From NCBI GenBank assembly GCA_013239625.1, contig MU057357.1, forward strand, positions 6,415,161 through 6,479,160: 64,000 bases of DNA, in the 5' to 3' direction. The stretch comes from Lama guanicoe. Taxonomy: Eukaryota. Numbering within the stretch: the stretch's first letter is position 1; every line of letters begins with the position of its first letter. The notes below the pieces were generated by a model. The model saw only the letters and a list, made by a program, of their open reading frames with translations, was not told the DNA's origin and searched no databases. The position numbers were made by a program, and so were the translations under genes. Of this stretch, positions 6,301-54,064 are shown piece after piece.

Positions 6301-9300
6301 GGGCACTGAGGGCAGCTCCTCCAGCTCTTCCTCTTCAGAATCGGAGGAGGATGACAGCCCTCCACTGGGGGGTGGTCTTCTGGGCACAGCCACCCACACC
6401 CGCTCTGGGGGTGCCCGCAGCAGTTCAGGAATGGGGCGCAGCACCAGGTGGCACTTGTAGCTGATCTGGGAGCGCTGGAGACAGGGTACTAGAGTCAGAC
6501 CTGAGGGACCCCTGGAGCCGAACTGACCCACTCAGGCCCACCTCAGCCCCAGGGGAGATAGCCCGAGGCAGGCAGAGTCAGGGGACAGGAGGGACGTGGG
6601 AGTTGAGAGAGTAAAAAGTGCATGAAGATGGATGAGCAGGAGTGAGGGCACCTGATAGAAAAAGCAGTGTTAGAGAGAGAAGGCTGCAGGGGGAGAAGAT
6701 GAAGGCACAGAGGCAGGGCCCTGCCAAACTCACCTGCCACCTCCGCCGGGAGAGGAATAGCTTTAGGTGATCCGTGCTCACCTCTGCGCCCTTTGCCTGT
6801 GTCTGCAAACCAGGAAAGAGTGCCTGAGGGAAAGTCCTCTGTCCACCCTAACCCTCCAAGTTTGGCAATGGAGAGACAATGCCCACGAGAGGGGACAGTA
6901 GACCAAGCAGCATTGAGTCTGCGTTCCTGGGGCTCCCTTTCCCCTCGGATCTGTCATAGCAACTCCCACGATCAAGGTACCCATGTATGGACAAATGCCC
7001 TGAACCTAAGTGGAGAAATAGGAAACCAGTGGCTCCAGGGGTGGGCTCTAGAGCTTATACCAGAGCTCAAGGCCCTGTCCTGGTCTACTGGCTGCCCTGG
7101 GAGACCCCTGGCTTGAACCCTGCTCCCCAAGTCACCATTTGTCTCCATCTAGAGCCAGCATCCCAGACATATGGAGTCTGGTGGGCCAGCCTTTGGAGGT
7201 GCTGCTCAGCGCCCACCCAGGTTACTCTTTTCAGAACTTATTTCTGAGCTGAGAGATCAGGCTCCTCCTCCAGGGACAGATACCAGAATGACCTCAGCCT
7301 TCTGTTGATCCAGCACCATGCTCATTGGATGATTTATTCAGTTACTCTTTCTGGCTCATTTGCTGAACCCCTCCCTCTGCCTGGCACTGTGCCCTGTGGT
7401 GCTGGGGTTTGAAGATGAATAAGTGAGAGCTCTGCCCACACAGAGCTCAAAACCAAGAGGACAAGCCAGCCAGGCCACCCACCAACCACAGTATGTGGGA
7501 CCAGGGCAGGATGGAGGAAGGCCACAGGAGTGCGGAGGACTGGGGCTGGTCTCAAGAGACAGGGAGAACCCTGATGAGGATCCCTAGGATGGGGAGGTCC
7601 AGACCTGTGCCTTGGAGTCCATGATACCCCAAGCTGAGCCTCAGTTTCCTTATCAGCAAAATGGAAGTAATAATACCTTCCTTTACAGAGCCATTGTGAG
7701 ACTAACAGATCATATGTAAATAAAATGCATTATCATGGTTACTGTACACAGTAGGGACTCAATAATTGGAGCTGTTGATAAAGTTCTCTCTCCTTCCACC
7801 TCTTCTACCACCACATTGTGAGACAAGACTCACTTTAATCTTTTTTTTAATGGAGGTACTGGGGATTGAACCCAGACCTTGTGCATGTTAAGCAGGTGCT
7901 CTACCACTGAGCTATTACCCTCCGCAAGACTCACTTTAAACCACGGATGTTCTAGGGTCTCCTCTGCGGTAGGTCTCCTGTAAAGGAATGAGGATTAAGA
8001 AGGGATTTTTCATTCATTCATTCATTCATTCATTCATTCATTCAATAAATGTTTGGGAAAACAGGGCCTCTAAGGAGTTGGGCGGTTAACTCCCTATGGA
8101 CAGAGGCTTGGGCAGGATTTGAGGGGTGGCATGAGGGGACCCTGCAAGGGGGAGGTTCCTTGGGGCCTCGTACTCACAGGCGGTCCTGTACCAGCACTTT
8201 GATGAGGAAGCCTCGGGCCTCCCTGCTCAGGCTCAGGAATGTGGTCTCCTCGAAGGCCACGTTGTAGTTTCGGATGTTCATCAGCGTCGTCCGATCGTTT
8301 TCCCCAACAAATGGGGAGATTCCCGTCAGACTGTAGGGGTGGAGAGGGCTGGGTGAGAGGGGGCAGGGTCCTGGGGCTGGGGCAGAGACAAAGGTGGATG
8401 CCAGGGGAGCATAGGGCCAGGGACAGATGGAGGCACCAGAGCTGTGGGGCAGGCAGAGGCGGGGTGAACCTGGGCAGAATCTTGCAGATTCTTGCCTGCC
8501 CTGCCCCTATCCAAACCCAGGAATGGGCGGGGAGGCAGTAATGCCTTGAATCCTGGGCAACCAGGTCCTTCTCCTAAGCCCATACTCTAGAGGACCTGTT
8601 CCATCCCTCCTCCAGCCATGCCCTTTCCCTGAGGTGAGGAGTCTGTGCCAATGGGATATGCCCCAGGAGCCAGGGCCTCCCCCTCCTAGTCTGTGTTCTG
8701 GACTAGTTCCCTGCCTAAATGGCACTGAGCCTGCACTGGCCTCTCCCTGTCCTGCCTCCCAAGCACGCTGCCAGTGTGCCCGCTCTTATGGAGGGGCGTG
8801 GTGGTGGACAGAGCTTGGACACACAGTCTGGATGTCCACATTCATGCACATGAGGCCCCTTCCAGTGCAGGAAGGAGCCACAGTATGGAGGAGAAAGGGG
8901 TGGGCTGCAGGCCCCCAGCTGCTCTCTTGCCCCAGGTTCTGCAAATGTTAGCAGTGGACCTGCTTGGAGACTGTTAGAAGACAGGGGTCCTGAGTGCAGA
9001 GGGGTCCTTACCAGAGGAAGGCAACAACACCCACGGGCCTGGTAGAAAAGAAAGGAGAGTAGATGGGTAAGAGGACAGCCCACCTCCCACCGGAAGTGAG
9101 CAGTTCTCTTGCTACTGCTGATCTACTAAGGAAGCATCCTCCTTGTGAACACTGCCATGCACAAATGGGCACAGGGATGCCTCCTTTGGGGAGGATCCTG
9201 AACCCAGAGGTCCCAACATGCCTGGAGGACTCAAGGGTCATGGCAGGGCCAGCCTAGGGAGCCCAGAGGAGTCTAGGGACCAAAAGGCCATGTCTGCCTC

Positions 9301-12300
9301 ACTGGGGGAGGCAAGGTGGCTTCAGGCAGGGAGGCCTAGCACCTGGGGGTGGGGGGGAAGAGGAGCCAAGGACTATCAGGGCTGAGGCCTTGAGTGATCG
9401 GGTCAGCCCTGACAGATGAGGGGCAGGTAGTAACAAGGGCAGGAGGCCCCCGTGAGCAATGCCACCAGCCAACTGTCTGAGAAGGAATCAGAGTAAAGCT
9501 GTTCTCTGCCACCAAACGAGTCCTCAGCATGGCACTGAGGGAAGCTGCTCTGGCCCACCCCAGCAGTCCCAGATGTCCATAATACCAGATGTCAGTGACT
9601 CCGGATACAGGGGTCTGGTTGACAATCTCAGGTGCCACAAATTCAGGTGTGCCGTACTGGCAGTACTGCGGCTCTCCTGGAATCAGCTCCTGAGCATTCC
9701 CGAAGTCACAGATCCTCACCTGCTCTTCACCCTCAACACCATCCCATACCAGCAGGTTCTCAGGCTGTGGGGCACAAGGCAAGACGTGGGGACTGAGTGA
9801 AGAGGGGAGGACACCCCGCTGCCTGGCTCCCACAGGTTCTGCCTGCTCCCCACTTCCCACCTGCATCTCACCTTGACATCGAGGTGCAGCACATGGTTCT
9901 CGTGCAAGTAACATATTCCGTCTAGCACCTGCCGCATGTAGGCCCGGATCTGTGGAAACAGGAGGCCCAGAATCGGGGGGTATTATGTTTGATCACCAGC
10001 AGGATTATGGTAAAAAGTCAGGCCATGCCTGGGAAGTGGCCTTCAGGTGGCTGGTGGAGCGGGCTGAAACATAGGTTTGGGGTTGCTGAGATTCAGGGCT
10101 TCCACGTACAGCTGCACAGGTTGCGTGCAGCAGAATTATAAGAGGGAGTCATTTACATGATAATCAGTAGAATTGTGCAGTACACAACTTGTGCAGCCCT
10201 ACAAGGCAGGACAGCACTGAGACTGAACAGAGTCTAGGTGGAGCTCCTTCTGGAGAAATGTGTGAGGAATACTTACGTAAGGAAGATTGGGAAACAACAG
10301 AGTTAGAGGCCAGGGTAGGTCTGCTGAGATTTACCGAGTACAAGTCCCAGGGTGCGGGTCTGCTCTGATGGGGGAAGGGGACTCTGCCGCCTGCCTAACA
10401 GTACTCCTCTCCACCACAACCCCCGCCTATTTGTGGGCACAGACGGCATGCCCAGGAGGCACCCCTTGGGTCTCGGAGCTCAGGTGGGTGAATGGTGGTG
10501 CGCAATCAGGCCCCTGCCACCCACTGCCCTCACCTCAGACTCACACACGGTGGCTTTCCTGGCCATTCGCTCGAGCAGCTCCTCCGTGCAGCTATGTCCC
10601 AGATCAAGGAGAACAGTGACCAGTGCCAACAGCTGGGCCCGCCTTAGGCAGCACCCTCTACCCACAGAGCTCAGGTTGGGTCCTAGCTCAGCACAGGCTT
10701 CTCCTTCCCCTTAAAGCACATCTGATACCAGTTAGCAACTGCATCTTCCTTCTTCCCCCTGACATCTGGGACAGCCCTGCTTGGACTCTCACTTGCTGTG
10801 GGATCTCAGGCAAGTCATATAACCTCTCTGAATCTAGGTTCCCTGTGGTGTCAAATAGGGATAACACTCCTCTCGCCCACCCTGTGAAGTATCTAGAAGG
10901 ATCAAGGTGGAGCAGTGTTTTGTTGACTGTTTATAGAACTTCTTGCCCCTATTTGAGAATGACCCAGAAGGTCTATGACACATAATAATTTGTCATTTTG
11001 CTGAGGTTTGGGTCCTAACAGTGCAGACTGGGAGGCTGGTATATATAGGACATGGTCACCCTGCTAGGGGCAGTGACAAAGCCAACCACCCAGCCTCCTT
11101 ACCTCGATATTTTTGAAACTCCTAGAACACTGCCAGGCACACATTAAGTGCTATGTAAATTTAAGATAAAAAAATGTTGGTTTTCACACATATGCCTCCA
11201 GACTCCACTCTAAAGAATTTATAAGACATCTTCAGAACTCCCAATTGTCAATGGGACCACTTTGTAAAGTGTAAGTCATGTTGCTAATTGGCTGTTACAA
11301 TGATCAGTCATTCAGGCCGTGTGTCCCCCACCCGCCCAGCCTGCCCTAGGATACAGCTCAGTGACAATGACCAGTCCCCGGCGCCTCTCGAAGGCCTCGT
11401 GGAAGTAGAGGACGCAGTCATGCTGGAGTCGGGCCAGCAGCCGGGCCTCCCGCCACGCTGATGCCTTTGGCTTGGCCTGACTGGGGATGAACTTGGCTGC
11501 AAACTCCAGGCCAGAGCTACGCTCCACCACACGCCGCAGGTAGGAGAAAGCACCCCTGGGTGAGGACACAGGGAGAGGATGGGGATCAGACACTGCTGAG
11601 ACTTAGATGCAGCCTCTCTCAGCCCCCGGACACAGCACCTGCCCCAGCCCCACACCTGCCAATCTCCTGGTGGATGTCATAGAAGTCGCTGAGCCTCCTT
11701 CCTCGCTGCTCCTCGTCTTCCCCGACCCCCTCCACCTCCATAGCTGTCTGAGCTGAGAAAGAGATGCCTGGTGTTAGGTGGGGAGGGCAGGAAGGAACGA
11801 GAGCATAGACTGGCCCAGGCAGGGCAGACAGAAGACACAGAAGAGAAGCAAGAATGTTGGGGGCCCGAGGCAGCGGTGCTGGGGCTGGAGGATGTGGTGG
11901 TCAGGAGTGAAGGGCCAGGTTGGGAGCTCACATCAGATTCCTGGGTGAGCACTTTGCCTTGAACTCCAGCCCACCTGAGTGCACAGCCAACTCTGCTTTG
12001 CAGGAGACTTCACCAGCCAGGTTTCGGGCAGTGCAGGTGTAGACACCTCCGTCCTGGGCCCCCGCGCTGAGCACCACCAGGGAGCACTCATTCTCCTCGT
12101 ACACGAAGCTCACGTGGTTGCTCTCTGTCAGCAGCACCTCATCCTGCAGAGGTGGCTGTCACCTCCAGTCCAGGCCTGGCTTCACCTCCACCTGGGACTC
12201 AGCTGGAGCTCCATGCCAGAGACCCAGTCTCACCCCTACCGCAGGTCCCAGTTATCTCCACCCTAGGGGCCTTGCTCAGACCCAGAATAGGTTCCACCCT

Positions 12301-18300: not shown

Positions 18301-21300
18301 ATCCCCGGGGGGATGTGAAGGGGAAGAGACCTGCACTGTCCTCCTTCCTTGACATCAGGGCCATCCCCAAACACCCCTCCCTCCTCTTAGCGATTATCTC
18401 TGCATGGAACAATCACTGGTTCATTTATCTCTGCTGACACTATTTATACGGGAAGAGAAGCCCAGGGCTGCCACTGACCCCAGATACAGACAGAAGCAGA
18501 GACGCCAGCTCAGATCCTGAGACAGACACCCACCCGGGGCCTCAGGGCAGAATGATAGACAGGAAGCCTGTGGGCTGAGCAAAGACAGCCATGGAAGGGG
18601 TTGAGGGGAGGGTCACAGCCACGGTGGTGACACAGGAGATGGGAGGGGAGAGTGAGGCATGGGCAAAAGGGGACGTCCTGGTCAGGAGGTGGACACCAGA
18701 GTCACACCATTCCTGTCTGCCTTTGGGCAAGTCACTGACCCTCTATAAGCCTCAGTTCCCCAATCTGGAAACAGGGATAATAGCACCTGCCTCACAGGTC
18801 TGTGGTGAGGAAGGTGAGATCATCCCTGTCAGGCCTCAAGCACCCAGGGCCTGGCACTCAGGAAGGGCTTAGTAAAGGTGAGTTTTGTCACACTGCAGCC
18901 AGAAGAGGAGCCCATCACAGGTCACGGGGTGGCACTGCTGGTGGGGAGGAGGTAGACCTTCTCACAGGAGACTCAGATTCCCTCAAGGGTGGAACTAAGA
19001 CACTCCGTGAGAAAACATCCTAGGCTGAGAGGACATGGTCCCAAATACGTTCCTAGGTATTTTCCCCACTCTTTCTTCTTTATTTGCCTTTTACCAACCC
19101 CGGACCAAGCATCCATTTGATACCAGACACTGCCCACACTGGGCTTTTCACTAGAATTTCTCCAGGAGGGTGTGAGCAGCAGCGCTTTATCAACAAGGAT
19201 GCTGATGGTGGCAACAACCGCGGTACCCGTAAGAGTAACACTTATTGACCCCTTGTTATTGGCCAGGCCCTGCCCTAAGTGCTTTCCATGCATTCACTGA
19301 TTCAATTCTCACCACAAGCCTACCACAGATGAGGGAACTGAGGCACAGAGGGGTCCTGTAACTTGCCCGCAGTCAGTAGCAGGCTGTACTGCCCATCCAG
19401 TAAATGCTAACAGGCCACCAAGGCCCAGACTGGTGACCCAGCTGACGGGTGCTGTGTGAGCTCAAGGGCTCAAGGAAGGAGGCAGTGGCCTCATAGCCTC
19501 TCTGCGCTCCCCTCTCCCAGGCACAATGAAGACTGCAAAGCAAGACCCAAAGGTGGGAGAGGGAACTGCAAGCAAAAAGGGTGCTGGAGGGGACACCCCT
19601 AGGGTCCCCTCCTGGACACGTACACTGTGTCATGCGCCGGTCATCGCTGCTCTGGATGCGGTGGCCATTGTGGAACCAGGTGATGGTGGGGTAGGGCAGG
19701 CCGGTCACTTGGCACTCCAGCATGGCCTCCTTGGCCAGTCCCACATCCAGGTCCTGCAGTGGCCGCAGGAAGTCAGGCATGGACAGCCGCTCCAGCTCGC
19801 CCTGCTCGGGTTCCTCGGGGATGGATGGCATCTTCTCCAGCTTCGAGCTGGAAGAAGTACACAGCTGCCCAGAGGCCCAGAGCCGCACCTCCCACCACAG
19901 GGCCGGGGCACCACAGAAGCACCCCTGGCAGCCCCAGGGACCCCAGGCAGTACCTAGGGCCAGTGGCCGCCGTCCGCGGCTCCTCCACATAGAGCTGGGC
20001 TGAGCAGTGGGCCTGGCCGTGGCTGTTGGTGGCGCTGACCTCATAGAGCCCTTCGTCCTCGCTGCCCACGTGGGCAATGTGCAGTGAGTGCAGGCCCCCG
20101 TCCTGCCGAAGCCGCAAGTTCTCACTCTCCTCCACGGGGCGGCCTGGGCAGGGAGGGGCAGGAGGACAGAGCAGCCTCAGCTGGGGACCCCGCCCTCTGG
20201 CCCTTGGGGGGGATCCCCAAACATCTACAGGGTGGAGAGCCATACCAAAATGAGCCCAGGTCACAGAGGGGGGCGGGGTGCCGCTGATCTTGCAGTCGAA
20301 GCGGGCTGCGCGGCCCTCCAGCACCTCCATGTCCTCCAGGAGCCGTGTGAACAGGGGCGCCAGTGAGGGCCGCACCGTCAGCCGGGCACTGCAGGTCAGC
20401 TCATCTGGTGGGGAGGGGTCAGCAATGGGGTGGGGAACACCATGCCCCAGGCACCCCAACTCAAGGGTCCTGCTCTCATACTGGGCAGGAAAAAGAAGCT
20501 GGGCCAGAAGCCGGAGCCTGGGCAGAGCCCAGCAACATTCCAGGCACCAGAGCAGGGCAAGATCTAAAGACTGGACCATCTCAGGAGGGTGAGGGTTATC
20601 AAGGGTGGGTGGAAGGCTGCCACGGGGCCTGGGGATATGACATGAGTCCAGGGCCCGGCCTGACTCTCCTCTCCTCATCTCATCCTGCCAAGCTCAGCTC
20701 TAAGGCTGAGCTTAGGGCCCACTCCCTCCCCCACACCCCTTTCCCTGACCCTTAGAACTCTCCTCTGCCCACCCTGGTCATGCCCACACTCCCTCACCCC
20801 GACTCCAGACCCAGAGTAAATGCCCCTTTGCCCCACTCGACCACCCTACAAAGAATCTTCTGGGGGAAATAATGGCCCCTTATGCTGACCTGACTGTTTC
20901 TGCTTACAGGGATCACCTTTAGGTGCCCATCACCACAACTGGGTGAGGCACTATCCCAGCTCTTCAAATGAGGACGGGGCCAGGTCAGAGACGTCATTAA
21001 TAATGACAATGGCGGAGATTTATTAGCTGCCACCCTTTGCCAGGTCTGTGCTTTGTTCTGTACATACATTAGTCCTCATTAGTCCCACCCATCCCCCTAG
21101 GAGGTAGGTATTATCATGATCCCTTTTTATAGATGAATAGTCTGAAGCTCAGAGAGATGAAGTGACTTGTCCAAAGTCACATGCTGGTATGTGGCAGGAC
21201 AAGAACTGGAACCCAAGTCCAGGTGTGGCTGGTATACTTCAGTAACTGGCTCCGACAGGAAAAACAGCGAACATTCATACAGAACATGCTGAGTCAGGTG

Positions 21301-36300: not shown

Positions 36301-39300
36301 GCAGGGGTGGGAGTGAGTCAAAAATGGCTTCCTCTGTCTTACTCCAGGAGTGGCCCCAAGTTGATGTTCAGGATAAGAAGAGTTAGGGGCAGGGGCATTC
36401 GGCCTATCGGTCACCACCCACAGGAAGACTGAGAGACACAGGCTAGCATGTGACCAGTCAGCTCAGCCATGCAGGGACTCAAGGATGGGAGAGGGGAGGC
36501 TAGAAGGGAGGCTGGGTCAGCTCTTAGTAGCCATAAGGGGTCACAGGATGGTGCCGGGATGGGAAGGTCAGTGTTGAGAGTTGGCTGGCCCAAAGCTTGC
36601 CTGTAACAGGTACCTGACCAATTATTTATTGAGATGGACTTCGGTCTCTTCCCCCACAGATGGGTGGAGTGTAGAGGGGCTCCTTAGGTTTCCATCAGTA
36701 CCTCTCCCCAGCGTTAGGTCATAGACCCAACAGCCCAGTAGGCCACTAGACCCAGGGGGCTTATGGTAGGCACTGGGCACTGGGTCTCTGCTCACACCTC
36801 TGCTCCATCCAGCCTCCATCAAAGCACACTCACACTGTGCCTTACTAGCAGGCAGGTTCTAGAACAAGGGACCTTCACAATCCTTCACTCAAATTCAACC
36901 TGCTTCCACACCTCCCCGGGGGAAGCCACACCCTCCCTACTGCCTAGCCTCTTCCCAGACCAGGTCTCAGCACCTTCTCTACTCTTCCCGAGGCCTTACC
37001 GAGCTCAGGTGAGGTGGGCCGGGCCCGGCGACCTCTGCCCTGGCTGCGGGCCCCACGGCGGTCCCAGGGCCCCCAAGGACCGTCCTCCTCTGGCCCTCTG
37101 CGCAGCCTCTTCTCGGCTTCAGGCCCCACCCTGTTCTTTTCCAAGGTCTGGGGCACAGCAGCGCCTTCCTGGCCCGGCGTGGCCCAGGGCAGGAAGCGCA
37201 CGGCCTGCGGCGGGGGCTCCCGCTTCCGACCTGGCGGGGCTCTCGTCCTGGTCTCGGGGGGATCGGCGCCGGGGGGCGGCACGGGGCTCCGGCACTCCTG
37301 GATGGCTCTGCTCCGGGTCAGCGGGAACTGGTCCCGGCGCCTAACCTCTTGCTGTGGACCTTCCCCGGGCTCCGTCCTGCCTGCTGGCCCGCGGCTCCGA
37401 GGCCTCCCTGGCTCATCCCCGGGCTTCCCCGCGACGCTCGGAGGGGGCGGCTGGGCGGCTTCGGGGCTCAAGGCCCGCGGGGTCTTGGGNNNNNNNNNNN
37501 NNNNNNNNNNNNNNNNNNNNNNNNNNNNNNNNNNNNNNNNNNNNNNNNNNNNNNNNNNNNNNNNNNNNNNNNNNNNNNNNNNNNNNNNNNNNNNNNNNNN
37601 NNNNNNNNNNNNNNNNNNNNNNNNNNNNNNNNNNNNNNNNNNNNNGTCGGAGGCTGGGCTGCGCTGCCGCGTGCGCTCGTCTAGCGAGGCCGCCTTCTGC
37701 TGGAACAGGCGGCGCCGCTCGGCCACGCTGCCCGCCGGCGCCCGCAGCTCCTCCTGCGAGGCCCCCGGCGTGCCCCACTGCCCGCCGCCCTCGGACTTGG
37801 GCTGNNNNNNNNNNNNNNNNNNNNNNNNNNNNNNNNNNNNNNNNNNNNNNNNNNNNNNNNNNNNNNNNNNNNNNNNNNNNNNNNNNNNNNNNNNNNNNNN
37901 NNNNNNNNNNNNNNNNNNNNNNNNNNNNNNNNNNNNNNNNNNNNNNNNNNNNCCCAGCGCCGACTGGCGGCCCGAGGCCTCGCTCAGGGGCGTCTGGGGC
38001 CGGGACTCCGCCGTGCCCGTTAGCGAGGGCCCCGACGACTTAGACTTTTTCCCTCGCTTGTCTTCGGCGGTGACGTCCTCGGGCGGCACCGGCTCGCGAG
38101 TGCGCCGGTGGGGCGGCGTGGGGATGGCCGTGAGCTGGGCGCTAGGTCCCGGCGGAGGCCGCTTACCCACCCGAGGGGACGGTGGGGGCAACAGCGCGGA
38201 TTTGGAGGGAGGCGGCAGGGCCGGGCGACGAGGGGCTTCGCTGGCCGGCTGAGGCTGAAGGTCAAGCTCCTCCCTATGCAGTCCACTCTGAGGGACGCTG
38301 CTGCAGAACCGAGACGAAGAGGGGTAGAAGATTCAGGGGGGCTCCCTCCTAGACCTTCAGCTCGCGACAGGCATCGGCGGTGGGCATGCTGGGAAGGCTT
38401 GAGTGTGACATGGGCCAGACCCTTCTCCCCCTCCCCCCTAAGAGGAAGGCACAGCCAGAGCAGGTGCTGGGGAGAGGCTGGCGACTCTGGCACCGGAAGA
38501 TTGGGCTGGTGGCTGGGTCCAGGTACAGACTCAGTCCCAGGGGCTCAGGCCAGCCCCCTCCCCCCAGCCCCGGAAGCTGGGAAACAGCAGGAACAGAACT
38601 GAGTGGTGGGAGAGAAAAGAATGAGGCTTAGGACCTGAAGGATGAAGTGGTGAGGGAAGGCGGGAGGATTCGATGGGGAGGGGCCCTCTCAGGAATGCAG
38701 CCTCCCACTCATTCCTGCCCCCAGCTGGCCCCTACAGCCCTGCCCATCCTCAGCAGGACATGCCCTGTTCACTGTGGCCCCCAGAAGAACAGGCACATGC
38801 CTTCCAGGAGCAATGCCCTTATCCTTGGGCTTGCCTAGCACCTCCTCAGACCTGAGCCCCTCACCAGTGCTGCCAGGATGAAGCAGGTGGCAGCCAGGGT
38901 CCCTGGGGTGGGAAACGAAGACACCCAGTTTCCTGTTCCCTTTGATTAGTCTGCCCCTAGTACAGGCCTTTGAATTTGTCTCGCCCCTGGGAAAGTTACC
39001 TTGAGTCCTTGGAAACCCCCCTGAGAAACACAGAGCTCCTCAAAGGAGTAGGCTCAGAAATAACTCAGCTCAGAAATAACTGCTGCGTGGGCCTGGACGG
39101 CGGGTACGGGAAAGGAGGAGGAAGGTGCTGGTCAGCCCAGAGTGCCCTCTCGCCTCCAAAGCTTTGATGCCTACGAGCTGGGCCTCACCTTCCCCCATCC
39201 AGGCCCTTGGTGGTGGGGGGTTCACATCAAATATAGAGGTTAGCAAGAAAAGGAATCTGAGACGTTAGCATCGTACCTGACACATTAGAGGGAGCTTAAT

Positions 39301-42300
39301 AAAAGCTTATGAAATGGCTCGTTGAGTACTTATTGTGTGCCAGGCATGTGCTGAAAGCTTATTGAGTCATTTAATCCTTATGACAATCCTCTGAGGTAGG
39401 AACTGTTATTCTCTCCATTTCCAGATGAAGAAACTGAGGCTTAAAGAGGTGAAGTGCCTTACCAAGGTAACACAGCTAGGAAATGGTTGGTGCTAGGACT
39501 GAAACCCAGGTAGTCTGGCTCGTGAGCCTTTGTTCCCTCCAAAATGTCTGGGATTCTGGAGGTACAAAAGGGAAGAGAAATGGTAGGGTACCAGCCACAA
39601 GCAGAAGTTCTAGGGGTGCCTAAGTCTCAGGATATTTTAGACTACCTGGGTCAGCCACCCACACTGCAAACCTCACCTCTGACTAGGGGGTAGAGGAGGA
39701 GGGAAGATGCAATCCAGAGTGCCCTGAGGGAGCAGAACCTCGGGCAGCCACCTGCAGGGAGGCAGAGTCTACTCTAGGGGAGGGACAACAGTCCCCTAGG
39801 AATGGCCTCTGGGAACTGGGTGAGGCATGGAGAGAAATTGGAGACAGCAGAGGAGGCCTCTTGCCGGCAGTTTCAAGCTCCAGGCCAGCCTCTGTACCAC
39901 AGACATTACTGAGGAAATGGGTTCCTCGGAAGTTGCCATAGCAACTCCAGGCTCCGGCTGGGGCTTGGCAAAGAAAGGCAGGGAAGGAAAAGGCAAGTCC
40001 AGGGCACGGGAGCGCCTGGCTAATGCCAACCAGATAAGACAAGGGAGCCTCCCCTGCGTCTGCCTTGGACCTCTCCCCTGTCTACCACTAGCCACCTCAG
40101 CCAACATCAAAAAGGCTTCCCTACACCAGGCCCCTTTTTTCTCTTCCGTGATGGTACCTCCCCCACACACCCATACCTATCCCCAATCAGGCCCCCCTCA
40201 GCTCCCCAAATGCCCCCCAATACCTCTTTCATCAGCCACTCCCCTCTTCTACTATAGCACTCCCTCTTGTATCCGCCAGCCCCAAACCTCCAAAAATGGC
40301 TCCAATGGCTCACTCCAACACCTCCGCTCCTCACCACCCCCTACCAGGACAACCTTCAACCCCACCCTCGGGCGTTTCCCCCCAAATCCTCACGTGCCCC
40401 CACCTCCATCACTCCAAGCCCTCTGCCTCCACCCGAGCCCCCTGTCCCCATCCCACCTGGCCCCAGTCCCCTGATACTTCACATCCCCCTGCTTTCCCAG
40501 GCCCCTGGCCCCATCTACCCCCTGACCACCTTGCTCTCTTCTGTCTCCTGGTTGNNNNNNNNNNNNNNNNNNNNNNNNNNNNNNNNNNNNNNNNNNNNNN
40601 NNNNNNNNNNNNNNNNNNNNNNNNNNNNNNNNNNNNNNNNNNNNNNNNNNNNNNNNNNNNNNNNNNNNNNNNNNNNNNNNNNNNNNNNNNNNNNCCCCGA
40701 GGGGGGGGGGATCCTGGGGACAACTGGAGCCTGAATGGGTGAGGCAGTAGAGGGCCCCCGGGAGAGTGGAGATCTTGGAGGAAACAGGAAGGGAGAGGGG
40801 GTCCACGAGACCATGGAGATGGCACAGTAAGCCAGGACAGGTGGGAGCAGGAGGATGTAGGTGGTGATGGCACAGGAGGAGGATGGAGCCATGTGGGAGA
40901 TAAAGTGGGTAACTGGGGCCAGGAGTGGAAGCAGTTGGGGGTGGAGAAGTGCACAGAGAGATGGATGATGCTGGGGACGTGGAGGGTAGAGGCTGATGAG
41001 CGGTGAGGGGCAGTGCAGGACAGCATGGTGAGGTAGGACAGAGTGGGCCCAGGTGAGGCCATTANNNNNNNNNNNNNNNNNNNNNNNNNNNNNNNNNNNN
41101 NNNNNNNNNNNNNNNNNNNNNNNNNNNNNNNNNNNNNNNNNNNNNNNNNNNNNNNNNNNNNNNNNNNNNNNNNNNNNNNNNNNNNNNNNNNNNNNNNNNN
41201 NNNNNNNNNNNNNNNNNNNNNNNNNNNNNNNNNNNNNNNNNNNNNNNNNNNNNNNNNNNNNNNNNNNNNNNNNNNNCCCCTGCTGCCCGCTTCCTGCTCC
41301 AGGACCGTCTGCCCGCTGCCCCACCAGCTCACTTGCTCCTCTGAGGTGCCTGTCACGGAGGTCGGGGGTGTGTCCAAGGAGGTGCCCACCAGGGTGTCAG
41401 AGCCCCCTAGAGAAAGGAGCACAGTGAAGCTCGGCAGCTCTTGGGGACAGCTCGCCTGCTGGCTTTGTGAGCGCCCCAGAGAGCTCACCCGTGGGGGTGC
41501 TGAAGGCCCCGTCATCCCGAAGCTCCAGGCGCTGGGTCCCCTGCACATCGCTGATGTCATCCTCACCCGTCTCCGTCTCCGAGTCTGAAGAAGAAGGGGT
41601 CTGTGTGGGCAGGACTCTCCTCCCTCTGACTCCAACGCTTCCCTCTGTCACCTTCTGCCTCCCCCACAGCAGGCTCCATATCGTCACCGGGAAAGCTTCC
41701 AGAACCTAGCTTCTCCCCCTCTTTTGCTCCCCACATCCCTCTGCCTATCCTGGGAGGCTCAGGGTAACCCCTCCCATGCTGGTCCCCTGGCTCCATCTCT
41801 GGGCCCTTGGCTCCTCACCCCTGCCTCCTTGGTAGTGCCCCCAAAGCTACCTAGAGTACACCCTCCCAGCCACTTAATGGATGGCAGGGCCGCAGCCCCT
41901 CTCCATCCTCCCCTGTTGGTGACAGCTTGTGTTCCTGAGCAGCCCCCAAAATCACAAGGTCCTAGGTGCCAAGGCTCTAAGTGCTGGGTTCCAGTACCCC
42001 AGGAACAAAGGGGAGTCACCTCAGAGTCGTACTGTCAGGGCACTCGACCAACCGCAGGACCAGCCTGTCCTCCACCCCAAATCAGCTGGAACACATCCGG
42101 GTGCAGCTGAGGCAGGGTGAGGAGAGGCCAGGTCGGGCAGGGAAGTGGGGGAGTGGANNNNNNNNNNNNNNNNNNNNNNNNNNNNNNNNNNNNNNNNNNN
42201 NNNNNNNNNNNNNNNNNNNNNNNNNNNNNNNNNNNNNNNNNNNNNNNNNNNNNNNNNNNNNNNNNNNNNNNNNNNNNNNNNNNNNNNNNGGGCAGGCAGG

Positions 42301-42518
42301 ACGGAGGGGCCATGAGGCTACCCAGTGCCCAGAGATGCCCTGTGGGGATGGGAGCAAGGGGAGGGAGATACCTGGGATGGGCAAAGCATCTCATTCTCTG
42401 CCTGCCTGCAGGCTCGGCTGGGCCCACCTTTGGGCAGCCCATGTGCTTTGGCAGATTATTCCAACTACCCCAGTGATTCTGGGCCCTTGGCAATTTCACT
42501 GGTGCTCCCACTGGCCAC

Positions 42519-42550
<32 letters not shown>

Positions 42551-44695
42551 CCCTACGTGTACTCAGCCCAGCCATAGACCCATTAGGGGCCAGGCCCACC
42601 CTATAACAACATTTGCAACCTCTCCTTACAACAAACCTCCCTATCTGTTCTGCACCATGATGTGACAAGCACCCTATTTCTGATCCCTTTCTTCTACTGC
42701 TGAATGGTCCTCAAAAATGCCCAGTGGTCAGGCTAGGAGCAAAGTTTTCTAGGCCTATTTTTTAACTTTCCCAGATTCTACCAGGTTCTGTGCCTCAGTT
42801 TCTCTTAATGCCATGACAAGCAGGAGCCATGTACGGGTTGCTGAAGCATGCACTGAACTCATCCCCACCTGGCCCCACAGATGGAGAACAGTAAGCCCAG
42901 GCCCACGATGAGGTGTGCCAGTTGCCCCCCACCCCCATTGCTAGGTCCTCCCTCAACTGCACGACACAAGGAGCCTTCTTGGGTGGGTAGGTGGGTGGGT
43001 GGGCGAATTTGGACATGGGGGGGGTTCCTGCATCTCATGGGCTGTCTTCAAGGCCTGGTGCCTCACAAAGGGACATGGACTAAGAGGAGTGCACGTGGGC
43101 TAGAGCACGGAGCCCACGCTCCACGCACCATGGGTGAGACGGCCAAGGGCCCGGCGGGAGTGGCCAGTTTTCTGAAAGAGAAAAGCCAGAATGAGTTGTT
43201 GAGAGGAAGGCTTGCTCTTGATGCTCTAACGTCCTTATATCTTTGTCCAAACCTCTATATCAAACAGAAAGTCATTCCAGGGGCCAGTGAGGGTGGGGAG
43301 AGTAAAAGAGACCCCGGGCAGCTAGCTTCTCCTACAGGGAATGTCTCCATTCTTCCTTTCCTGTCAGCCCTCCCAGCTGGAGCTCCAGCTTGGCTCTGGC
43401 AAGGAGCAGGGAAAGAGAGAGGAGCAAGGGTCAAATACTGAGACTTGTGACAGACAGAGGACTGGGGACCTGAGCGACACTCCCAGAGATAGAGACTGAC
43501 TGATGTGAAGGAAGAGATGGGGGGGGGGGTGCTTGGATGGCTGGGAGATGGAGGGATAAGGACATAGATTTCTGCTGGGGGAAGGACAGGTACTTGGGAT
43601 AGGTGTCAACAGGGCGGGGAGCGTGATGAGGGGGCGGAGGGCAAAGTCCCCCAAAGGGCCGTAGCCTCGTGAAGGCAGGAAGGAGGCCCGGGTCCGCGGA
43701 GGACGGGGCTTGCGGAATGCATTGAGCCCTGCGCGGATCCCTGCGCGGTGCTTTCAGGAGCTCCGGAAGATGGAAGGCTCCAGAGTGGGGGGCTGGGGAG
43801 AGCCGGGCGGGGGCCCGGGGCTGGACAGAGGCGAGGGGTAGCACGGAAGCCTCCACGCCGAAGGCCACCACAGGGGCTTCCCAGGTGGTCGCGGGGATCG
43901 CGGGAGCTGGGGGGGTTCTGCCCTTGGGCGCGGGGAGGTGCCTGACGCAGGCCGGGAGCCCCCCGGAGCACGCCCGGCCCGCGGCCTCGGCGGCCAGGGT
44001 GGGGCAGGCGCGGCTCCGGCGGCCCCTCCCCGGGCCCAGCTGCGGCGACCCGCCCTCCCNNNNNNNNNNNNNNNNNNNNNNNNNNNNNNNNNNNNNNNNN
44101 NNNNNNNNNNNNNNNNNNNNNNNNNNNNNNNNNNNNNNGGAAGGAGCCTTCGGGCTGCGGGAACCCGGGCGGCGGGAAGGCGGCGGCGGCGGCGGCAGCC
44201 GAGGCGGCCGGAGCCTACCCCTCCCCCGCCAGCCCTCGCCCCCTACCCCAACCCTGGCGCCCCTTCCCTCGCTTGCCCGCCTGCTTCCCCTGGGGCAGCG
44301 ATCGTCGGCCTCGCAGCACCCCCACCCCGCATCTGCCTCCCGGGCCCTAGGCACTTGGGGAAACTGAGGCACAGAAAGGGTTGCAGTGGCCCCTAGGAGA
44401 GTTCGGGCCACTCTCATTGGCTGCCCAACGCGGCATCCACGCCACCCCCACCCGCCTCCCGTGGGGCTGCTCTGGAAGGTCAGCTGCATCTCCACTTGCT
44501 CACTCCACAAACATGCACACTCGTCCGCCGTGCCAGGCCACAGGGCCATGGTGCTGGGTGGGGGACCCAGGTCATACACAGGGCAAAGGTCCTTGTAGTG
44601 ACATGAACCTAGAATACGAAACCCCAGGCTACTCAGGAAAGCCAGAGAGGGTCCTCCAGTTGCCTGATGGTAGGTATTCTGTCTCTGCACTCTGG

Positions 44696-52310: not shown

Positions 52311-52768
52311 AAAAGTCCAGGTGAGAGACCTAGCCCTGATGTTGAACCCTAGGGGATGAAGCCTGGGAAGAGCAGAGAGGAGCCAAAGGAGGAGCCAGCA
52401 GTCATTAGGAGATGGAGAAAGTTACCCTTATCCCCCATCATCATTCTGAAAGGCCCAAGTCAAAGTGTTTGTGTGTGCATGGAGAGGGCAGAGTTATACA
52501 CTGAATTATATCTATAGTGTCCAAGAGCCTTAACGAATGACATCTTTGGTTTTAGTTTGCATACATTAAAGCTTACTCTTTGTGATGTGCTGTTCTCCTG
52601 GTTTTGACAAATGCAGAGAACTGCATCTGCTACTCCAGGATCATACAGGACAATCTCATCACCCTGAAGATTGCCTGAGCATCCCCTTTGTTGTCAGACA
52701 TACCCCACCCGCCAACCCCTGACAACCACTGATGCTGAACTGAACTCTTAAATGTAAACTGAATTCTA

Positions 52769-52907
52769 GGGGGGAGGGTGTAGCTCAAGTGGTAGAGTGT
52801 ATGCTTAGCATGCACAGGGTCTTGGGTTCAATCCCCGTACCTCCTCTAAAAATAAATAAATAGACCTACTAATTACCTACCCCCCACCAAAAAATAAAAT
52901 AAAATAA
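52769..52907 (+). mobile_element. tRNA-derived SINE (camelid Vic-1-like) with about 19-bp target-site duplication
   Basis: ggggagggtgtagctcaagtggtagag...gggttcaatccc, (A)n/TAAAA tail; aaatgtaaa(c/t)tgaattcta at 52750-52768 and 52908-52926. Confidence 0.9.
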
Positions 52908-54064
52908 AAATGTAAATTGAATTCTAAAAGGTAAAAATGTGGGGGAAGACATTGTAAGCAGATGGAACATCAAGACCAAAGGAGGAGGATTCCTGTCCCC
53001 ATGTTGCTTATATTCCAGGAAGGAGACAAATGTAAAGAGATAAAGAAATGATAAAGATCATCAGGCGATGCATATTGTGGGGAGAATGGAGCAGGGTAAG
53101 GGAGATGGAAGTGTGGTGGGTAACTTACACTTTCAAACAGGAGGATAGGAGTTGGCCTCACTGGGAACAGTTGAGTCAATCTTGAAGGAGGCAAATGGTG
53201 CAGAAGTCTGGGCAGGACTGCTTCAGGCAGAGGTGGAAATGTGCCCTGTGGGCTCCAAAAGAACCAGGAGGCCGTCGGGCAGGAGAGTGGAGGGACAGGA
53301 GGTCAGACAGGCAATGGGGAACAGATGGCCTAGCATCTTGTAGGCCATGGTTTTTTTACTCCTAGTGAAGTGGGAAGTCATCTCACAAGATTTTGAGCCA
53401 AGGAATTACATGATCTGACTTAGGTTGTTGTGATGGCTTTAACTTATTATATTAAATTTTAAAATGAATATTAACTATTTAAAAGGGCCTGGCACAGAGC
53501 CTGGAACATGGCTTGTGGGTCTCCTGTTTGAATGTCCATAATGGCTTTCACTGTTGGGCGCACAGGAGTGTGTGGGCCTGGGTAAGGAGGGCATAGCCCC
53601 TTGCAAGTCGCGGGCGCCCTCTCCTGGAGGAGCCCACACTAGCCGTGACGCCGGAAGCCATTAGGCCCTGGCCAGGGCCCTTACCCAGAGCAGCTGGCTG
53701 GCTGCAAGGAGCTCATCTGTCCCTCAGAATGGCCCCACAGTGCCCCACGGCTTGGCGCCAGGATGGGTGTGTGCTGCCAGTCTGCCCTGCCTTGCAATCA
53801 CAAGCCTGTGGTGTCATGGAAAGATATCTGGGCTCCGGAGGCCAAGGAGCAGGGGGCCTGGTCCTCCTCTGCCACAGATATGCTGTGTGACCTTGGCAGT
53901 TCACCCCACCTCTCTGGGCCGTGGGGTGTTTCCTCCAAGTCATAATGATGCACCGTGTGGTAAAAGCTCAGTAAGTGTTCATTGAATCAGTGAATGAAGT
54001 TGGGGGAGGGGCATCAACCTCTCTGGTAAATATTTAATTTAGAGAAAAGTACATTTAAAGTGCC

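Follow-up and report, generated by a model that had tools for sequence, protein, structure and literature searches.

A splice donor present in several copies is known from intron 7 of human F7, in which a minisatellite of five to nine tandem 37-bp units repeats the donor; the downstream copies are functional, and only the most upstream one is used (PMC1557585). The Discussion of that paper mentions earlier work with tandem duplications, where splicing took place at the proximal copy, as well as another group that found the opposite, so the upstream-donor rule is not universal. Splice sites are also hit by insertions. Alu insertions at splice sites of NF1 disturb splicing and cause disease and, by our reading of Table 2 in PMC3219598, the 11-nt duplication of the AluY in NF1 intron 14 ends in the acceptor AG. 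In dogs, one polymorphic SINEC_Cf element occurs where a SOX6 exon ends and another 1 bp after PTPRK exon 13 (10.1101/2020.10.27.358119), and their duplications should span the donors. In merle, a SINEC_Cf is located at the PMEL intron 10/exon 11 boundary, with an antisense T tract and a threshold of 56-66 (PMC6091007). Sense SINE ends are moreover known to give rise to cleavage sites within introns (PMC6969169, PMC2553571), and a GT-rich polyadenylation element downstream of such sites has been described (PMC2553571). In the literature searched, with subscription papers mostly outside its reach, we found no direct description of a donor duplicated by a SINE target-site repeat and no paper on the SPEG SINE locus in camels or alpaca.

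The locus considered here is SPEG exon 28 in the window (the whole 64-kb stretch of DNA that was analysed). Full-length SPEG proteins mapped onto the window exon by exon. The exon number was obtained by counting the matched exons of the Camelus model P0155, among which exon 26, too short to be found by tblastn, was located by eye. A perfect 15-nt direct repeat with a spacing of 101 nt was detected on the minus strand (Table 1), its upstream copy covering the last 5 nt of exon 28 and the first 10 nt of the intron. As the repeat spans the exon/intron border, the donors at 7934 and 7833 are identical from -5 to +10, and their GT dinucleotides (7934-7933 and 7833-7832) are 101 nt apart. Two other repeats are situated close to the short exon: a (TGAA)n run on the minus strand (8009-8048, intron 27), a length-variable tract whose end lies some 30 nt before the exon 28 acceptor, and a perfect 11-nt inverted repeat (7678-7688/7978-7988) with one arm over that acceptor and the other in intron 28. 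Pairing of the latter would loop out exon 28 together with both donors, and may be a matter of chance. The window also contains seven N runs (999 bases in total, in 1271-1402, 37490-37952 and 40555-44138), several of them inside or beside SPEG exons 3 and 4; the window-coded model P0179 lacks part of exon 4 at these runs.

Table 1. Position of features at the duplicated SPEG exon 28 donor (coordinates of the window)
Feature	Position	Strand	Support
SPEG exon 28, 43 nt, last residues of kinase domain 1	7935..7977	-	100% match to P0155 residues 1781-1794 and P0179 residues 1572-1585
SPEG exon 29, 69 nt, basic segment after kinase 1	6734..6802	-	homologous segment aligns with DAPK1 beyond kinase core
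Upstream target-site duplication copy, holds working donor (GT 7934-7933)	7925..7939	-	used by P0154, P0155, P0179
Sense-oriented simple tRNA-derived SINE, likely vic-1; tRNA-like body 7851-7921	7839..7924	-	Rfam, ARAGORN, sister copy
A8 tail	7841..7848	-	residue count through tail equal in P0002
Downstream duplication copy; duplicate donor GT 7833-7832; TGA 7832-7830 is the read-through stop	7824..7838	-	P0001 and P0002 end here
Predicted 5-bp hairpin with 6-nt loop over +1 to +5 of duplicate donor; absent at upstream copy	7818..7833	-	minimum-energy fold, 4/4 folding windows
Cryptic in-frame GT at +57, 19 extra residues if used	7876..7877	-	local matrix 6.8 bits, U1 duplex -4.8 kcal/mol
Cryptic out-of-frame GT at +16	7917..7918	-	local matrix 5.9 bits, U1 duplex -6.0 kcal/mol
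First ATTAAA hexamer, polyadenylation-signal-like	7846..7851	-	sequence match
Second ATTAAA hexamer, abuts duplicate donor	7834..7839	-	sequence match
TGTG/GT-rich stretch, placed like downstream polyadenylation element	7807..7815	-	read from sequence

The 86 nt between the repeat copies matched the Rfam tRNA model over its full length (44.4 bits, E 3.3e-08, model positions 1-71 of 71). They consist of a single tRNA-like unit with no further modules in the Rfam comparison, and their 3' end is formed by A8 and two bases. A sister copy, 84% identical, was found at 52773-52855, and a profile search of the 64-kb window revealed no third copy with E <1, giving two copies per 64 kb. ARAGORN named the SINE at exon 28 tRNA-Val(AAC) and the sister copy tRNA-Ala(AGC), tRNA-Ala being the origin of vic-1. 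The SINE at exon 28 is likely a member of this camelid family, to which it was assigned by resemblance without consensus comparison; SINEBase describes vic-1 as a simple SINE of camels (PMC3531059). A genuine tRNA-Val gene, as the ARAGORN call would have it, was rejected because the unit carries an A tail and is bordered by repeats, and because the Rfam alignment marks five of its pairs as non-standard. A chance repeat was also rejected: the two copies agree at 15/15 positions and are placed exactly at both SINE ends. The sister SINE region (52750-52926) lies on the plus strand, that is antisense to SPEG, upstream of the first SPEG coding exon. There a TT/AAAT site is followed by a separate 19-nt flanking repeat (one mismatch), and the tail is composite and longer.

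L1-type insertions are characterized by direct repeats of 7-20 bp and by an endonuclease consensus which is TT/AAAA-like (PMC3219598). The flanking repeat at exon 28 (15 nt, 100% identical) falls within the range expected of L1-mobilised insertions, and the motif TT/AAAG at 7938/7937 shows one deviation from the consensus; the A8 run supplies the A-rich tail typical of such elements. From this motif we infer that the nick likely occurred at 7938/7937, three nucleotides inside exon 28, so that coding sequence would have been hit by the insertion. With the site at this position, the strict duplication would likely measure 13 nt, and the remaining 2 nt may represent SINE tail. Most of this geometry had been recognized by a sequence-only reading of the same DNA, namely an 86-nt sense tRNA-derived SINE with a target-site duplication spanning the donor, two identical donors of SPEG exon 28 placed 101 nt apart, and an L1-endonuclease-like TT/AAAG at the exon end; the repeat, the Rfam match and the donor positions confirmed it, with the nick likely 3 nt inside the exon.

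The most satisfactory explanation is, in our opinion, that of an old and tolerated SINE insertion, in which the target-site duplication rescued the exon and the second donor has since remained mostly idle, its product likely being degraded; we regard this as probable. The SINE would likely have been inserted by the L1 machinery three bases before the end of exon 28 in the common ancestor of Old and New World camels. Duplication of the target site would then likely have rebuilt the exon end and the donor upstream of the SINE, sparing SPEG. Such an insertion was likely harmless only because the duplication reached past position +6 of the donor. Little use is predicted for the second donor, and whatever it yields would likely be destroyed by nonsense-mediated decay (NMD).

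The age of the insertion can be judged from Camelus gene models. When exon 28 plus the 101-nt extension was searched among proteins of 84-2000 residues, two proteins among 12 candidates contained it, both from Camelus bactrianus (P0001 and P0002). Both models end in the same 34 residues as the read-through of the window, with two substitutions (32/34 identical) and no length change, and both stop at the TGA inside the second donor. Since P0001 and P0002 read through the SINE, the SINE is common to Old and New World camels, in agreement with the earlier attribution of the element to the camelid lineage; the split of the two tribes is placed in the Early Miocene (PMC6675863). The equal length of the extension in C. 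bactrianus and in the window, judged from one allele each and read via protein, indicates that tail length has remained unchanged across two tribes. Around kinase 1, the window-coded P0179 and both Camelus models show three differences in 386 residues, so that the window stems from another camelid than these two, most likely a South American species. The exon 27 peptide was also compared with a metagenome scan (26 of 64 parts), which yielded a single locus with 58% identity over 24 residues; this encodes an unrelated kinase and was rejected as a SPEG orthologue, and no mammalian SPEG DNA was present in the parts scanned.

We then turn to the use of the two donors in annotated proteins, 120 of the 484 SPEG protein matches being listed. 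Exon 28 was joined straight to exon 29 in 115 of the 120 SPEG proteins among the matches listed, and the extension was carried by none of them (0/120); such gene models, guided by homology and grouped at 90% identity, could conceal a minor isoform. The exceptions are represented by four dromedary models and one chimpanzee isoform. The spacer after the kinase measured 19 residues in 111 of 119 proteins, the pattern not being fitted in the other eight. As for full-length camelid models, three of seven (P0154, P0155 and P0179) used the first donor, and splicing from the second donor, or from within the SINE, was shown by none (0/7). In the four dromedary models (P0180-P0183), exon 28 is replaced by an intronic stretch at about 7490-7551 on the minus strand, which is probably a prediction error and possibly a cryptic exon. 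The chimpanzee protein (P0003, SPEG isoform 4) jumps from exon 27 to the middle of exon 30, with exons 28 and 29 dropped. Against an idle second donor speak the two Camelus models that run into the SINE (P0001 and P0002), and low-level use of the second donor may occur.

We infer a preference for the first donor, which is the first site met after the exon and should have the more open structure. The predicted cost of opening was 1.1-3.5 kcal/mol for the first donor and 4.6-5.8 kcal/mol for the second in all four windows folded, and the first donor was among the three most open of 28 working SPEG donors in 3/3 settings. The hairpin predicted over the duplicate (Table 1) was nevertheless rejected as its sole silencer, as the duplicate is mid-range among working donors: between 14 and 18 of the 28 are at least as closed. 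Such a hairpin would thus tilt donor choice without settling it. Donor strength was assessed by a local matrix, for which 29 donors were hand-placed, one was dropped because of a wrong boundary, and exon 28 was excluded from training, leaving 27; exons 3, 17, 29 and 32-34 are omitted. The exon 28 donor scored 5.8 on this matrix and formed a U1 duplex of -5.7 kcal/mol. Higher matrix scores were obtained for 23 of the 27 other SPEG donors (training donors, hence self-scored), and better U1 binding for 20 of 28. The donors of exon 25 (9575-9590, minus strand) and of exons 13 and 22 (near 19623 and 11354) also appeared weak or unusual on the matrix, their boundaries being hand-placed.

On these values the exon 28 donor is on the weak side and the exon itself is short, which could favour the 144-nt option, i.e. 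the exon with its extension. Exons of 144 nt are more usual than exons of 43 nt. It might then be supposed that the second donor is used at a meaningful and regulated rate and that this lowers SPEG through NMD. The reading frame is suitable: the translation of the 101-nt extension contains no stop codon, and splicing of the second donor to exon 29 is out of frame, with a stop at nt 23-25 of the 69-nt exon 29 and further junctions downstream, so that the product is a predicted NMD target, just as the sequence-only reading had held for this stop-free, frameshifting extension. The identity of the donors from -5 to +10 and the constant tail length between the tribes also suit such regulation, but an unchanged A8 is equally expected under neutrality, the second donor was found in 0/7 camelid models, it is the more structured copy, and in F7 the downstream copies are passed over (PMC1557585). 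Because loss of SPEG leads to recessive myopathy (PMC8199188), heavy use of the second donor should be selected against. We therefore regard regulated decay through the second donor as improbable.

The frame of the extension had earlier been taken as the basis of a splice switch that depends on poly(A) length, in which A9 alleles or cells would turn the second donor into an in-frame insert of 34 residues. The arithmetic is correct: one extra A in the tail gives 102 nt, or 34 codons, without a stop. A precedent for SINE tails that govern splicing also exists in merle (PMC6091007). However, merle acts via a long antisense T tract beside an acceptor and not via the frame, and the A8 tail is far from its threshold of 56-66 T. 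Furthermore, tail length is equal in two tribes (one allele each), and the switch needs both an unseen allele and the unseen use of a donor which appears in none of the seven camelid models, so the idea was not borne out and seems to us extremely improbable. Nor is the open frame peculiar to this copy. The sister SINE has the same frame open, each copy has one open frame out of three, and stop codons were also absent from 1212 of 10,000 shuffled versions of the extension; the open frame is a trait of the SINE family, and the 'stop-free SINE' was rejected as a sign of selection. When the 33 residues of the extension were compared with 1.84 billion protein representatives, a single match was found (P0185, an ankyrin-like repeat protein, E 3.2e-05), and we judged this likeness to be due to chance.

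Two cryptic GT dinucleotides are situated between the donors (Table 1). The one at +57 could add 19 SINE-derived residues between kinase 1 and the regulatory segment, with the tail unchanged and in New World camelids only. This insert would be in frame (57 nt), and its donor exceeds the real one on the local matrix (6.8 vs 5.8), although this matrix rests on 27 donors only. Codon 19 of the extension encodes K in the window and N in P0002, from which it follows that the -1 G of this donor is likely absent in the Bactrian allele. On the other hand, its U1 duplex is weaker (-4.8 vs -5.7 kcal/mol), the bases at +3 (C) and +4 (T) are poor, and the insert is absent from all proteins among the matches listed. 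Use of this site is thus very unlikely.

A different role of the SINE is suggested by the sequence around its tail, which may constitute a polyadenylation signal. Some transcripts would then skip both donors and be cleaved near 7820, so that SPEG would end after kinase 1 with 34 SINE-derived residues, devoid of the calmodulin-binding-like helix and of kinase 2. The two ATTAAA hexamers account for two of the three AATAAA/ATTAAA matches on the sense strand of the 1.1-kb intron. A CA dinucleotide is found 14 and 26 nt past the hexamers (7820-7819) and TGTG at 7815-7812, a spacing which fits the 10-30 nt expected between a signal hexamer and a cleavage site with a GT-rich element behind it, as judged by sequence match only. 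P0001 and P0002 end exactly at the read-through stop. A stop codon in the last exon escapes NMD, and so the message would survive. Yet P0002 begins within exon 18, at an internal Met, and does not otherwise differ from P0155 as far as the junction, which gives it the appearance of a fragment model extended to the first stop encountered. Both differences of the extension from Camelus change residues, which also counts against a coding terminal exon, and an A8 run can prime oligo(dT) and so fake a 3' end. U1 bound at the donor 83-95 nt upstream should moreover repress cleavage (telescripting; PMC6969169). Taken together, a composite terminal exon is unlikely, though a more promising lead than the tail-length switch. 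The sequence-only reading, sound as regards the geometry of the extension, had overlooked the two hexamers, the stop inside the second donor, the hairpin over it and the in-frame cryptic donor at +57.

The locus would gain in importance if such a terminal exon were real. The junction falls exactly between kinase 1 and the segment that aligns with DAPK1 beyond the kinase core; alligator SPEG aligned with DAPK1 through residue 311 (4tl0_A, E 1.3e-61), a stretch which we take to be the calmodulin-binding autoregulatory region of DAPK1. A calmodulin-binding motif is suggested by the stretch that follows kinase 1 of SPEG, while in vitro the kinase needs no calmodulin to be active (PMC7957886). According to a review (PMC8199188), no SPEG isoform carries just one of the two kinases. 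We can only speculate that camelids acquired their own last exon for SPEG, in which the SINE tail polyadenylates, the duplicated donor provides the stop, muscle makes a kinase-1-only SPEG and U1 sets the balance of splicing and cleavage; we give this little credence. If true, the truncated form, one not described for SPEG, would serve as a natural tool for studying the regulation of SPEG kinase 1.

Returning to the tolerated insertion with an idle duplicate donor, we estimated how often such events should arise. With 60,000-100,000 SINE copies and round numbers of 200,000 donors and 2.0 Gb, some 30-70 insertions per genome with a duplication covering -3 to +6 of a donor would be expected before selection. 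The lower copy number was extrapolated from two copies in 64 kb and the higher one to the SINEs other than MIR given for the Bactrian camel in Table 2 of PMC6675863, but the dromedary columns of the same table imply <10,000 copies, by which the expectation falls about tenfold. Dogs show no depletion of polymorphic SINEs immediately downstream of coding exons, whereas fixed SINEs are depleted on both sides of exons (10.1101/2020.10.27.358119). At SPEG, an insertion into an exon would thus have been neatly made good by the duplication of its own target site, and the pair of identical donors lends itself, as a natural experiment, to examining how the spliceosome decides between them.

How does the locus compare with the systems described at the beginning? 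As for F7, the repeat unit also spans the exon-intron boundary there, with identical donors downstream of the real one; as predictions, the SPEG gene models use the upstream donor (3/7) and not the downstream one (0/7). The difference is one of architecture: F7 carries 5-9 tandem units, while SPEG has one extra donor that stems from a target-site duplication, 101 nt away and with a SINE between. As for merle, both loci have a tRNA-derived SINE at an exon boundary, an alternative site that adds, or at SPEG would add, SINE sequence to the protein, and a tail whose length has been proposed to matter. The merle element, however, is antisense and polymorphic, lies at an acceptor, has a T tract tens of bases long and is accompanied by a phenotype, whereas that of SPEG is sense, located at a donor and shared across tribes, with A8 and no known use; no long, unstable and polymorphic tail of the merle type was seen here (A8, of the same length in the two alleles compared). 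The NF1 and dog insertions resemble that of SPEG in being L1-type insertions at or beside exon borders, but the NF1 cases cause disease and the SPEG insertion appears tolerated and old. With vic-1, the SINE shares a tRNA-like body, a short A-rich tail and its camelid host, the sister copy being called tRNA-Ala. Intronic poly(A) sites derived from SINEs (PMC2553571, PMC6969169) are resembled by a sense SINE 3' end with signal-like hexamers just inside the intron, except that at SPEG the sites are putative and a donor copy abuts the second hexamer. In sum, the SPEG locus holds a donor duplicated by a SINE target-site repeat, most likely through an old and tolerated insertion whose duplicate donor is idle.
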